A stretch of DNA of 63,322 bases, the filler included, from Rhabdomonas costata (taxonomy: Eukaryota): assembly GCA_019059605.1 (NCBI GenBank). It is 49 parts of 49 records of this genome, joined end to end, with 100 filler letters (N's around TTAATTAATTAA, not from the genome) between each part and the next. Parts side by side here need not be neighbours in the genome. Positions count along the whole stretch, not along the records: positions 10,359 to 11,552 come from JAHMHO010024107.1; 48 more parts are not named here. One strand, given 5' to 3'. The notes under the pieces are model-generated. The model saw nothing but the letters and a program-made list of their open reading frames with translations. It made no database searches and was not told where the DNA came from. Made by a program: the position numbers and the translations under genes. Numbering within the stretch: position 1 is the first letter of the stretch; each line of letters begins with the position of its first letter. Below are positions 8,610 to 63,322 of this stretch, piece by piece.

Positions 8610-9555
8610 GGTCTTGTTTTCGCTTTTTATTCGCCAACGCCACTGCGGTGGATTAACGAGGCGCCAGTTTATCAGATCATCGCCCAGGAATTGAAAGCAT
8701 GGGTGTGCCCCAAGTCAGAGGCGAGTTCATGAGGATGCATAGAAAATTCTGAACTTGCCATGCGGCCTGGAAAATTCGAGCCCAATGCTGCCGAGATGAA
8801 GACTGGTGCCAGTGCAAGTGGCTTCCAAGTGGCTTCCACCTTCCTTAAATTGGAAGGTGATCAACGCTCCTGTGCTGGAAGGCAGAACGCATTGCAACCT
8901 CCTTCTGACTCGCAGTGTCAGTTTAGACTAGCAGAAACGCCTGAAACACACTGCACAAAACACNNNNNNNNNNNNNNNNNNNNNNNNNNNNNNNNNNNNN
9001 NNNNNNNTTAATTAATTAANNNNNNNNNNNNNNNNNNNNNNNNNNNNNNNNNNNNNNNNNNNNGTGGTTCTCAGTGCCTGTTTTCCATGATTCCTCTCAT
9101 AGAATGCAACTGCATGTTTTTGAAATTGTTGGCGTCTGCATCATTGTACGTATTTATGGCCCGGGTCGTGCCAAAAGTGAAAGTTGGAGCAGCGGAATCT
9201 AGCTGTCAACCGTTTTTGAATGCCTCCAGTAAACAACGGGCAGATGCATGCAAAGCTTGCTGGGTACCCCTGCCTGTGAGGCTTACTTTGGGCGGCTGCC
9301 GCACAGCGTTTCATGCAAGCGATGGCATGTGACAGATTTGGCCACATGGCGAGATTTTTGCTCTAGTAGTCAAATAGTGTTTGTTGCAGGTTTTACTGGA
9401 GAAAAAAGTCGAAATACCAGCCTCCCAAATATGAGGACGCCACGCCAGCGATGGAGCATTGCTATTTGCAGGGGTTGCCGTCGTCATTGGTGCACTTCCG
9501 TTTTTAACGAAAACTGCTCCAATGGGAAGTTCGCGGGCGTCCGCTCCCTCTCCAG

Positions 9556-10258
9556 TGTACGTTGAGCTCCTCTCTCGCCAAGCTGGCGACCAGCGGGACG
9601 CCCTACTCACCAGGTTGCACACCCGCCAAGCAGCAAGCAGAGACCCGAAGGTGTCAAGGTGGCGGTGACTTTGAAACCCCCGATAGGGGCTCGAGCACCT
9701 GTGTCTTTCTACGAGCGTGCGCGTCCAAACCGGCCTCCGTAACTGGTGCACCGTTGACAAGATTGTGGTCATGCTTCTGCGGGCTTCCTCATTGTATGCC
9801 ACAGCAGTGGTCCAGACTTGCCGCAGAGTGCCCCTTTTCTTCCTCCGAACCCTTCTTTTTGGGTGTTTTAACAGCAGTTCTGCTCTGCGTAGGGTTTGCC
9901 GTCGTCCTCTTTGCTGACCTCTTATCTACCTTTTCTGATCCACGCTTTGTGCTTGTCGCTATTCGTTTCTTTTTCCACATTGTGGGCCCAAGGAGATGGC
10001 GGATCCGATGTCCGTCGAAGCCAGGCTTCCCCGCCGGAACTCGCTGGACTCCCTGGCCACGGCTCTGCAGAACACCCCTCCCATAGCCTCCACGGTGAGC
10101 ACGTTTGAGATCCCTCAGAGCCTTACTCTGGATGCCATCACACATCCTGTTTTAGCCTGCGGGACCCCCGAGGCGGAGGAAACTGCCCTGCCTGCACCGC
10201 CGTTGGATTCCTTCATCATCAGCGAGACTACCTCCAGCTTCACCCCGATCCCAGTGCC
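9556..10258 (+). CDS. Hypothetical protein, partial, 2 exons
   Basis: Exon 9556-9650 is AG/GT-bounded. Exon 9993-10258 joins in phase 0 and is Pro/Ser-rich. No family recognised. Confidence 0.45.
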
Positions 10259-10443
10259 NNNNNNNNNNNNNNNNNNNNNNNNNNNNNNNNNNNNNNNNNN
10301 NNTTAATTAATTAANNNNNNNNNNNNNNNNNNNNNNNNNNNNNNNNNNNNNNNNNNNNTGTGGGTGTTTGTGGCTTGAAGTTTCGGGAAAGTGGGTGTGG
10401 GGAGGGGATCTTTCGGAGTTAGAGGGCGTTTGGATTTTCACAG

Positions 10444-11545
10444 ACTCCGGGGCCGTGACTGAGATTGTCGCCTCTGTGGTGGCCTCCGTGGTGGTGGTTG
10501 GGGTGGCCGTCTTGGTGTACTGCTTGTGTCGGAGGAAGATCTTGCTCTCCGCCCCTGGTCCTCTCTTCACGTCCTGTTCTGCTGCAGCTACTGTGCTTTA
10601 TTTTTGCGCTTTCCTCTGCACCGGTGGGGAAAGTGAAGCCTTAGCTGAGGCAGCCTTTCGGATCGAAACGGACAGCGGCGGGTAGCGACCCAACAAACGT
10701 GTGGTGCCAGGCAAGGTCGGATGGTCGCAGCAACCAGTGCACCTCCTTTCTTTGTTTTTCGTCCTTCTTTCTTCATTGGAGGCTGTTGTATTGGATCGGG
10801 GGGGGGTCGTTAACATTGAACCGCCACAGGCGGTGGGAAAGATTTTCCACTATGGGGCTGTGGCACCACGTATCTAACCTCCATTCCATTTGTCCAAAAC
10901 ACGAAGCTTTTCTTCCCGCCTTCCCGCAATTCAGTTATTTCTCTTTCCTCCTCCTTCTTTCCTGTGTATTCCCAATCCTTCTGCCCTCTTCTTCATCTCT
11001 TTCGTTTTTTGCCCTTCGCGATCCCCCCACCCCGATTTCCTGCTCACCGCAGGCTTTCTCGGTTTGGGCTTTGGGGAGGCGGTGGAAGTCCGGGACGAGA
11101 AGTGGGAGGCCAAGTTCAAGGAGCTGTTTGAGAAAGAACGCAGCATCCTCATGACGAAGGCGGAGCCTCTGCTGGCCTCCGCCCAGGAGGTCCACGCTGC
11201 GGGCAGCCAGAACGCGGTGAGCTTTGCGAAGGAATGCATGCAGTGGGCGCAGACCAACTTTCCTGACAGCGTGCTGGCGGTGGCGACGTGTCGGTGGTGG
11301 ACCATGGGCGAAAGCCAAACCAACGTACGTGCCCCGTACTGGGTGATCAACAACTCGCTGAGGCCGGGGGTGCGGAAGGAAAATACCGCGGCCGTGGAGA
11401 AGGTAATGCCCGCGGTGTGCCTGCTGCTGTGGGCTCTGGAGAACCTCCCTGAGAAGCCGTTCGAGCGCAAGCCCTCGACGGTGTTCCGGGTGGTGAGCTG
11501 GCTCTTTCCGAACCCGCAGGAGCACAACCCCAGGCTCTTCCCCCA
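10444..11545 (+). CDS. Single-pass membrane protein with C-terminal ADP-ribosyltransferase (ART)-like domain, partial
   Basis: Exon 10444-10557 reads EIVASVVASVVVVGVAVLVYCLCRRK (TM helix plus basic stop-transfer). A phase-1 GT-AG intron spans 10558-11052. The exon from 11053 to the contig end reads AVATCRWWT...PYWVINNSLR...LLLWALENLP...TVFRVV, resembling the ART pattern AI.LYT...Y..LN..LR...LL..AL.KLP...TVYRG. Confidence 0.7.
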
Positions 11546-11730
11546 CCCCACCNNNNNNNNNNNNNNNNNNNNNNNNNNNNNNNNNNNNNNNNNNNNTTAA
11601 TTAATTAANNNNNNNNNNNNNNNNNNNNNNNNNNNNNNNNNNNNNNNNNNNNGGTGTTGTGGGCAGAGAGAGAGGTGATGCGTGTATGTGTGTGTGTGTG
11701 TTGGCGAGTCGGTTGGCAGGGTTCACGCAC

Positions 11731-61376: not shown

Positions 61377-62169
61377 CTGAAGGAAACAGCAGCACACCCC
61401 ACACCCCAGGTTCAACTACTTCCACACATCCTGAGGAGGTCGTTTATACAAACAGCAGGTCTTCCAAAACGGCCTCGGGAGGGTCCGTTCAGTTTCGGAT
61501 CGTGATTTATTTTTGTGCCGCTTCTTGCCCCACCATAGTGAGGGGCCACATCACCCACAAACCAAATTAGCGAGCGGTGGGGGTGGAGCGAGCTTTGCCT
61601 AGAGCTTTGTCTAAAATCCAGACACCCAAAAATAGGCCGGCAGTGACTGCCGTGGCCCCATAATCCGGGCTTCATTGGAAAAGGAGACTCGCGCTACTAG
61701 CAAGGTCCCACTTATGGTGGCATCGCGGCACTCCAAAATGTCCGATCCATGATAAATTCAGCCATGCATGTGACATTGTGAGCATATGCCCACCACTAAT
61801 TGCACTCAAACCGCAGCCCACTTTTCTCCGATTCCCAGGTGTTGTGGTCTTGGTTTTCACCTCTACCCATTGTCGTTGCGTTGTGCTATATACATTTGAA
61901 CTGTTGTGCTACACTTGAACTTTGCCTTTATCCTGCGGGAAGCGTTACAACATAAACACACAAACTCAAGCGGCCACACGGGTTTAAACCCCCGTCACCC
62001 TCGTGGCCCGCGTTTTCAGCAACAATAANNNNNNNNNNNNNNNNNNNNNNNNNNNNNNNNNNNNNNNNNNNNTTAATTAATTAANNNNNNNNNNNNNNNN
62101 NNNNNNNNNNNNNNNNNNNNNNNNNNNNTTGTGGGCAATCCAGAGCCAACAAACGTTCGGTGAATTACT

Positions 62170-62310
62170 GCCTTTTTCTTTCCTCACTGAGAAGCTTCAT
62201 TATTACACCGAACGTTTGTTGGCTCTGGATTGCCCACAAGCAGCCCTCCAGCTTCTACGCAATTGCCTTGGAGCATGTAAGGTCGTTTACGCACCCTCCA
62301 TGTGCCCTTT
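62170..62310 (+). mobile_element. Remnant of a CRE-like non-LTR retrotransposon (post-RT region)
   Basis: ERLLALDCPQAALQLLRNCLGACKVVY resembles L..L...Q.AL.LLR.C....K..Y. It overlaps a fold-back at 62129-62240. Confidence 0.5.
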
Positions 62311-63322
62311 ACCAGTAGTACCGTGGTACCCCCCAGTTGTAATCAAAGCGGGATCAGTTTCATTGTTATGATCCCAGGGCGCCGAAGACGGAAAGTTCCT
62401 TTCGAAAAACAGGAGAGGACAAGTACAGCGAAGATCGGAAACCCGCGAGAAAGGGGTCCTCAGTTGGAGAATGGCGCACACGCTGTTCCCTGCACAGTCA
62501 GGATTATGCAGGCAAAGGGCCTAGTTTATTTGGGTTACACTGGAGTTGCTTATCCGCTTTCGATATTGGTCATATGTAGATGCATCCTCGGTGGTCCCCA
62601 GCACCCAAAGAAATACAACACCCCGTGCGTTCTTCTGGGATTTTGAAGGAGATCGAACTTCTTTCATGAAAAGCATTGCCTTGAAACGGAAATGGTCGCT
62701 CAAGTTAAACTGCACACTGAACCCAACGTCACAATCCAGCTCTTTGTCTGCTTCAGGAAGAGAACGAAGTGCTTTTCCCGCCGCTGTCGCGGTTTCTGGT
62801 GAAGGAGGTGGAGAAGGTATTCCCTGACATCCCGGACAAGGTCACCCTGGTGTACCTCAGCAGCGGCCCACTTTCAGATGGCGACCCCGTCTTACTAATC
62901 CGAAATGCGCAGCCTCAGTAAAATGGGCTCTTTTCGTCCTTTTGAGTCCTCCGTACGGATCTGAGGGACACACACCATCATACAGACTCCATGTGCAGAT
63001 TTCTGGGGTTGTGCAGCTGGTGTTTTGCCAGGTGTTTTTTGTTTTCTGAAGGCTTCCTCGGTGAACGTCCATATCGTGTTCATCACTTTGCATATCTCGC
63101 ACGCATCTTTGAGTGCCTTGCACCGGAAGGATGGTTGAGTCTTACCTGTGGTGGGGGCGCTTCAGAAAGCCCTCTCGCGCTGGCACACACAAGACTTTTT
63201 CCGGATTCTGTTTGTGTTTTTCTGCGCTCGTGTGGTGCAGTGTGCCGCTGGTGTTGCCGCCGGCTTGGATTTCCTAGTTGTTGGACGTGTGAAAATCCAA
63301 GCCGGCGGCAACACCACCCACA

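Follow-up and report, generated by a model that had tools for sequence, protein, structure and literature searches.

Does a eukaryote carry an ADP-ribosyltransferase (ART) of the toxin type behind a transmembrane (TM) helix, on the cytosolic face of one of its own membrane proteins? This question is raised by a gene fragment of the euglenid Rhabdomonas costata, found on one contig (positions 10359-11552, 1194 bp) of a stretch of 63,322 bases, the window, which is the whole DNA analysed here and consists of 49 contigs of 1188-1214 bp each and 48 spacers of 100 bases. According to our results, this contig probably holds two internal exons of a gene for a single-pass membrane protein, in which a helix, a basic cluster and a linker lead into a cytoplasmic domain of the R-S-E ART fold; in one homologue, P0005, the chain also carries leucine-rich repeats (LRR). 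The presence of the helix and the R-S-E ART domain in a single reading frame was shown for several members of the family. The enzyme kind itself is known, and what appears new, on computational grounds, is the architecture, namely a TM helix combined with a cytoplasmic ART, with LRR in one full-length relative.

Two exons and their predicted junction

The first-pass annotation of this DNA had described a 114-nt phase-1 exon coding for a hydrophobic helix followed by basic residues, spliced in frame (GT 10558, AG 11052) to an exon with the motifs WWT, PYWVINNSLR, LLLWALENLP and TVFRVV. All of these elements are present in the sequence and its translation, with both splice sites in place and the motifs as quoted. 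The first two bases of exon 1, right after the acceptor AG, finish a codon, and the translation continues with DSGAVTE, a 22-residue helix IVASVVASVVVVGVAVLVYCLC (coded by 10464-10529; its best 19-residue Kyte-Doolittle window averages 2.76) and RRKILLSAP, whose basic cluster RRK is coded by 10530-10538. A Gly codon, made of the last base of exon 1 and 11053-11054, bridges the in-frame join, and exon 2 carries ATCRWWT, PYWVINNSLR and MPAVCLLLWALENLP in the helical region and TVFRVV in the first strand, the Arg codon of the latter being located at 11487-11489. The translation of exon 2 up to the contig end, with a length of 167 residues, is referred to as P0001.

Both exons stand out by their content of G and C at third codon positions (GC3), which reaches 0.84 for the first and 0.85 for the second, whereas the three frames of the intron between them range from 0.49 to 0.58, and the open stretch directly upstream of the acceptor (10878-11052, exon-2 frame) shows 0.48. 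Overall, the intron has a GC content of 0.53 and a pyrimidine fraction of 0.62, and about 199 codons run over both exons without a stop. Furthermore, when spliced in silico, the product of the window is colinear with the homologues P0003, P0005 and P0011 over the helix, the basic cluster, the linker and the first helix of the domain, with gaps of at most one residue. Among the possible splice pairs, 10557/11053 was preferred because GC3 drops on both of its sides and because of this colinearity. Since the three homologues are predicted from assembled transcripts, their continuity constitutes comparative support for the splice in the window; each of them joins helix, basic cluster and domain with matching spacing, in agreement with the earlier view that the two exons belong to one gene and are not a chimeric join. 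The GC3 contrast, the homologues and the colinear spliced product confirm that the observation on the exons is beyond chance, and from these sequence comparisons we infer that the 10557/11053 junction is used in vivo.

Only 85 nt of the contig lie upstream of exon 1. An open frame (10311..10685) covers the contig start and exon 1 in translation; the segment 10359-10443 has a GC3 of about 0.54 (counted by eye) vs 0.84 in exon 1, its peptide bears no resemblance to any homologue, and we read it as intron. As this frame continues up to the contig start without an ATG, the gene must have one or more further coding exons upstream. At the other end, the last six codons (LFPHPT, from ~11535) depart from the K/E-A/S-H-F that is common to all homologues at this place; because this tail diverges from the homologues and is rich in pyrimidines, exon 2 probably ends near 11533 with a non-GT border. 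The remaining bases (11534-11552) are thus probably the start of the next intron, which lacks a GT and may be of the GC-AG type or of the non-conventional euglenid type. The contig end, to which the first-pass annotation had referred the missing catalytic motifs, is a literal one, since the contig stops at 11552 and a spacer follows.

ART fold, catalytic residues and a candidate terminal exon

The fragment has no significant match when searched alone, and the ART assignment therefore rests on its homologues. Folded with its alignment, the 167-residue fragment forms a confident helical bundle at residues 16-130, where the predicted local distance difference test (pLDDT) lies mostly at 80-95, followed by a disordered end. 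Both pieces of the window stay below the Pfam gathering cutoffs of PF01129 and PF03496, a result that says little, as most of the region matched by these profiles is lacking in them. A first language-model search of the fragment gave low recognition (1577), with phage DUF7207 clusters at the top and a cluster with 10% ART members only at rank 14, and was treated as uninformative.

Homologues of exon 2 were readily recovered. A HMMER search over 1.84 billion representative proteins returned 11 matches at E<=1e-3, of which 9 reached E<=1e-10 and 2 reached E<=1e-30, one of the matches having an E of 1.4e-42. In a word-indexed search, P0003 was found at E 2.5e-46 (87/162 residues identical to exon 2 by BLASTP, 54%, E 5e-58), and P0016, with 63% identity over 52% of the query, was the best match in the collections.

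The fold was assessed on P0004 (370 residues), which shares 54% identity with the window fragment in residues 2-155. Its model, built from a 13-row alignment, has a mean pLDDT of 74.6 and a predicted template modelling score of 0.68. In a Foldseek comparison against the PDB, 17 structures matched at E<=1e-3, and all matches listed are R-S-E ARTs, including XopAI, Certhrax, C3 exoenzymes, HopU1, Vis, Plx2a, VIP2 and ExoS/ExoT. Structural alignment with VIA-align gave Z scores of 12.0 for XopAI (193 aligned residues, root-mean-square deviation (rmsd) 4.4), 11.1 for HopU1 and 10.7 for rat ART2.2 (1gxy; 188 aligned with an rmsd of 4.0, over residues 1-344 of the model); the 50 rows listed are ARTs without exception, at sequence identities of just 11-22%. 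These alignments start at model residues 1-30 and therefore include the helical region encoded by the window.

Sequence profiles point in the same direction. The Pfam ART family matches 6 of 13 family members (best E 1.3e-7, at the ExE region) and ADPrib_exo_Tox (PF03496) matches 3 of 13. The ART cutoff of 22.3 bits is passed by P0010 (29.9) and P0013 (31.6), and P0004 (22.1 bits), P0003 (20.1), P0005 (19.2) and P0007 (16.5) fall just under it; no Pfam ART match was obtained for P0008, P0011, P0015 or the candidate terminal exon of the window described below. When the family profile was compared with PDB sequences, 9 rows appeared at E<=10, of which 6 are ARTs (XopAI at E 4.1e-4 and 5.8e-4, Vis at 0.029 and ART2.2 three times at 0.14-1.1) and 3 are unrelated, at E 0.65-8.8. 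In this search, the E-x-E-VLFpP of the family is matched residue for residue by E-Q-E-VLFPP in XopAI and by E-A-E-VLFAP in Vis. In a language-model search with P0004, considering named clusters only, ADPrib_exo_Tox and ART clusters were found at 0.95.

The catalytic residues were followed through the family. Of 12 aligned rows, 11 have the Arg of the aromatic-Arg strand, among them that of the window (TVFRVV), and the exception, P0007, has a Glu; the equivalent Y139-R140 of P0004 is situated inside the model strand 133-143, and that this strand is the catalytic one was judged from the structural alignment of the domain as a whole and not residue by residue. The Ser motif of the homologues reads F-x-(S/A/T)-(A/S)-S, and its last Ser is kept in 11/11 rows. 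The ExE motif appears in 6 of 8 alignable rows, including the candidate terminal exon of the window, and is replaced by G-D-E in P0007 and K-G-M in P0008; P0014 was left out of this count as its C-terminal tail is not alignable. With the conserved Arg and ExE, the family is, as modelled, a member of the R-S-E (cholera-toxin-like, ARTC/C3/VIP2) ART fold class. The ART-like domain proposed from exon 2 is in this way upheld through the P0004 model and the Pfam ART matches within the family, and not by the fragment alone, for which no significant ART match was found. Membrane-type members are predicted to be catalytically competent, because they keep the Arg, the final Ser and the ExE.

The first-pass annotation had placed the E motif beyond the contig 10359-11552, and rightly so, as a matching E-N-E exon is located on a separate contig of the window. 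Searched with P0003 by tblastn, the whole window contains two real matches, exon 2 and 62742-62861, the latter aligning to P0003 residues 325-364 with 26/40 identical positions (E 1e-10); with P0004 the same place was found at 70% identity (E 5e-12, tblastn). The candidate terminal exon begins with E-E-N-E-VLFPPLSRF, with the ExE motif at 62760-62768, and its GC3 of 0.71 is somewhat below that of the other exons. The features of both contigs are collected in Table 1.

Table 1. Features of the ART gene fragment and of the candidate terminal exon, in window positions.
Feature	Position	Strand	Remarks
Putative upstream intron end	10359..10443	+	AG at 10442-10443; frame open to contig start, no ATG
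Exon 1, phase 1, 114 nt	10444..10557	+	Outer stub, helix, basic cluster, linker start
Predicted GT-AG intron, 495 nt	10558..11052	+	GT 10558-10559, AG 11051-11052; 3' part pyrimidine-rich
Exon 2	11053..~11533	+	FG-motif linker, ART N-terminal helical region, first strand with aromatic-Arg; 3' end approximate
Contig tail	11534..11552	+	Pyrimidines 0.88; GC at 11534-11535, no GT; departs from all homologues
Candidate terminal exon	62757..62921	+	Contig 62129-63322; AG 62755-62756 after pyrimidine tract; TAA 62919-62921

Predicted membrane topology and the case for a receptor-like enzyme

The most complete view of the architecture is provided by P0005 (1224 residues), in which an LRRNT_2 match at 73-111 is followed by LRR_8 and LRR_4 matches through 212-669, one strong hydrophobic segment at 778-815, the basic stretch RRCLRSR and, beyond a short linker, the ART domain. 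Ahead of the helix, a Cys-rich stretch resembles TSP1_spondin at E 0.013 and 16.2 bits, against a cutoff of 41, and is taken as a lead only. Before the helix, P0005 contains 13 N-x-S/T sequons and 23 Cys, and after it 0 sequons and 7 Cys. In P0011, KRKKKRR and the beginning of the domain come after a full helix, and P0003 starts within such a helix, continuing with RQRRKRRR. The charge around the window helix is -2 before and +3 after, a bias that fits an N-terminus outside and the ART domain inside the cell. From the order helix, basic cluster, linker and ART domain it follows that the enzyme domain would be on the cytoplasmic face.

P0005 thus has in one chain the three elements of an enzyme-linked type I receptor, namely an ectodomain, one helix and a catalytic domain on the predicted cytoplasmic side, and the contig of the window fragment has the helix and part of the catalytic domain. 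The signal peptide with a GPI (glycosylphosphatidylinositol) anchor or secretion, by which animal ARTCs are recognized, was not what we found, the domain being C-terminal to a TM helix and a basic cluster in the predicted topology. In the first-pass annotation the domain had been assigned to the cytoplasm behind an upstream ectodomain. The predicted topology agrees with the former, through the charges in the window and the sequons and Cys of P0005; the latter is borne out in P0005 by its LRR repeats with LRRNT_2, and for the gene of the window it is a prediction. Three outcomes would have spoken against the interpretation as a whole, namely no ART-fold match, two exons of different genes or joined as a chimera, and a domain outside the cell, and none of them was found; as far as sequence analysis goes, the interpretation is supported.

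On this basis we put forward, as a tentative proposal to which we give somewhat less than an even chance, that euglenids own an undescribed class of type I receptors, in which an LRR ectodomain controls a cytoplasmic ARTC-type ART and couples a ligand to arginine ADP-ribosylation or NAD+ cleavage. A ligand would bind the outer domain and change the oligomeric state or the conformation of the protein; this change would activate the cytoplasmic domain, which could then mono-ADP-ribosylate itself or a downstream protein with cytosolic NAD+. The target residue would probably be arginine, because the ExE form is kept. The outer domain would in this manner control the ART as in other single-pass enzyme-linked receptors.

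Compared with known systems, the family shares the R-S-E fold, the aromatic-Arg strand and the ExE with the vertebrate ARTC1-5 (rat ART2.2, PDB 1gxy; PF01129). However, animal ARTCs work extracellularly, either secreted or on a GPI anchor, whereas the domain of the window family is predicted to be cytoplasmic, after a TM helix and a basic cluster; the family further differs by an insert of ~100 residues between the Ser motif and the ExE, partly of low model confidence, and by a first Ser that is often Ala. The best structural and profile matches of the family are XopAI, HopU1, Vis, C3 and VIP2/iota (PF03496), but these bacterial R-S-E effectors and toxins are soluble and exported into other cells, unlike the present intron-bearing eukaryotic gene, which would code for the organism's own integral membrane protein. 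The outer repeat domain, one helix and cytoplasmic catalytic domain of P0005 are also the arrangement of plant LRR receptor kinases and Toll-like receptors (TIR), and trypanosomatid receptor-type adenylate cyclases, which belong to the Euglenozoa, are generally known to follow the same enzyme-linked single-pass domain logic. In contrast to all these, the cytoplasmic module here is an ART, and the likeness is one of possible working, not of family membership.

To our knowledge, the outputs of single-pass receptors comprise kinases, phosphatases, nucleotide cyclases and TIR domains, and ADP-ribosylation is not among them. Cells contain cytosolic ADP-ribosylarginine hydrolases, and therefore the writer of intracellular arginine ADP-ribosylation has, as far as we know, long been unclear. 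A family of receptor-like, cytoplasmic, toxin-type ARTs would offer a concrete and clonable candidate both for receptors with an ART output and for such a writer. If true, a eukaryote would here encode for itself an arginine ART of the toxin type that faces the cytosol, which would add to the unusual receptor repertoire of Euglenozoa. Our literature search retrieved no description of an ADP-ribosyltransferase in euglenids, nor of an arginine ADP-ribosyltransferase of Euglena. In the abstracts retrieved, eukaryotic and animal ARTC enzymes are described as ecto-enzymes, secreted or GPI-anchored, and the works on receptor, membrane-bound, transmembrane or LRR-linked ARTs among the matches listed are bacterial by title or abstract. 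The titles and abstracts covered, among which the ART-diversity review of Aravind et al. (2015) was not, reported no transmembrane or LRR-linked ART of this kind, and the main text of the R. costata paper, supplements aside, has 0 occurrences of 'ADP-ribos', 'leucine-rich' and 'receptor' (PMC8219788).

Several observations weigh against a membrane-bound, receptor-like ART. Searched by itself, P0001 gave no ART match in Pfam, with only a chance-level DENR_N at E 1.1, a PDB sequence search of the window fragment gave 0 matches at E<=10, and Foldseek of its model gave none at E<=1e-3, with XopAI at rank 2 and E 2.5. As many as 31 GT/GC-AG pairs in the region yield a stop-free join, so that being in frame is weak as an argument alone. 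The LRR ectodomain is seen in P0005 alone, a protein from a transcriptome assembly, which displays no obvious N-terminal signal peptide and no hydrophobic window above 1.6 before residue 778. The first position of the Ser motif is Ser or Thr in 6 of 11 family rows and Ala in the other 5; moreover, tblastn with eight homologues found neither an LRR exon nor an exon with the S motif on any contig of the window, the latter bearing on S-x-S. The candidate terminal exon may derive from this gene or from a close paralogue, which makes its linkage to exons 1 and 2 putative. Further, the searched collections contain no protein identical or near-identical to the window product, and the window copy could therefore be a silent paralogue; in a tree of the N-terminal region it falls outside the tight membrane-type cluster (support 49/86).

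Some of these points feed rival explanations. The same architecture could serve NAD+ hydrolysis, the protein then being a ligand-triggered NADase that depletes NAD+ or makes ADP-ribose-derived signals, as a pattern-recognition or cell-death receptor like the LRR-TM-TIR proteins. We regard this as rather unlikely: the order of LRR, TM and NAD-using domain in P0005 does parallel Toll-like receptors, R-S-E ARTs are generally known to show NAD glycohydrolase activity commonly, and the family comprises a number of paralogues within one organism, of which some have degenerate catalytic residues, a feature common in immune-type families, but an ExE with an aromatic-Arg strand is, by general knowledge, typical of arginine-specific transferases, and sequence cannot separate a transferase from a hydrolase. 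The lost catalytic residues of P0007 (Arg to Glu, ExE to G-D-E) and P0008 (ExE to K-G-M) would equally suit a dead gene or enzyme in the window, that is, an unexpressed or decaying paralogue or a pseudoenzyme scaffold, as would the tail that diverges from all homologues and the missing identical protein in collections where related transcriptome proteins are present. Yet about 199 codons run without a stop and with the GC3 of coding sequence, neither the conserved motifs nor the Arg has been lost, and E-N-E is retained in the candidate terminal exon, all of which make a dead copy quite unlikely in our view.

That the two exons are not joined at all, exon 2 deriving from a soluble member such as P0007, P0008 or P0015 and the hydrophobic exon belonging elsewhere or to nothing, seems very unlikely. 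Soluble members do exist, the tree draws the window sequence weakly beside them and there are many alternative in-frame joins; nevertheless, GC3 is equally extreme in the two exons, which are found on one strand with 495 nt between them and GT-AG at the borders, in the joined product the helix, the basic cluster and the linker are spaced as in P0005, P0011 and P0003, and the window sequence is closest to the membrane-type group (54-63% identity) vs the soluble group (32-40%). An outward or lumenal domain, with the helix acting as a signal anchor or as the stop-transfer segment of a secretory or organelle presequence, would give an ecto-enzyme like the animal ARTCs. It would suit the general knowledge, and the abstracts retrieved, that characterised eukaryotic ARTC-type enzymes are all extracellular or lumenal, the stop-transfer helix that euglenid plastid-targeting presequences are generally known to contain, and the N-N-S/T conserved within the VINN(S/T)LR of the window and P0003/P0004. 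This sequon is, however, absent from P0005 (INNAL), a basic cluster follows the helix in every member (RRK in the window, RRCLRSR, KRKKKRR and RQRRKRRR), P0005 has its sequons and its Cys-rich LRR region before the helix with no sequon after it, and R. costata is described as a primary osmotroph (PMC8219788); we therefore hold an outward domain to be highly improbable. The cytoplasmic ART behind a TM helix is the reading we prefer.

The homologue family and the remainder of the window

The family is rare and, where named, euglenid; for the window fragment, a eukaryotic origin is further supported by its intron. Five of the ten proteins looked up (P0003, P0005, P0007, P0008 and P0011) come from the EukProt Rhabdomonas costata transcriptome, and the other five from ENA, Logan and JGI records. 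A search for long forms recovered only P0005 and P0007 among 5504 candidates of 670-2000 residues, and was limited by its word index, which missed P0008 (951 residues). In the tree, from which P0006, P0012 and P0014 were left out as redundant or too short, the window sequence forms its own branch, with P0003 at the shortest path distance; the support of 49/86 was taken as too low to assign it to a subfamily from the tree.

P0007, P0008 and P0015 form a soluble branch without the helix and with a different N-terminal region, in which they share a module G-L-S/G-x-K/R-x-A-E-x-x-L-x-W-G that has no Pfam match. In P0007 the domain is partly repeated at the C-terminus and the Arg and the first Glu are lost, and P0008 has lost the ExE altogether; judging by these residues, both are probable pseudoenzymes. 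In P0011, a transcript-derived protein of 201 residues, the end of the helix, the basic cluster, the linker and the first helix of the domain form a module that occurs in two tandem copies, owing either to a tandem duplication of an exon or gene or to an artefact of the assembly.

No genomic relatives turned up in scans of metagenome contigs. A single-protein scan gave 56 pattern matches, none of which was confirmed, and a degenerate DNA pattern for AVATCRWWT gave nine loci, only one of which had a tblastn match (E 1e-4); this was rejected as an out-of-frame chance match and sits on a bacterial contig coding for what reads, from its open reading frame, as an elongation-factor-P-like protein.

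In the window itself, each spacer consists of N runs flanking TTAATTAATTAA, and neighbouring contigs are unrelated in position, their adjacency having no genomic meaning. Rfam and tRNA scans of the whole window found no RNA genes, and tblastn with the eight homologues matched only the contigs 10359-11552 and 62129-63322. On the minus strand, 10931-11596 holds two stop-free frames of 221 residues antisense to exon 2, which are taken as shadow frames of a GC3-rich coding exon and not as genes. On the contig 9064-10258, an ATG at 9996 begins a reading frame (MADPMSVEARLPRRNSLDSL...) of 87 codons or more, which is open up to the contig end (9996-10258).

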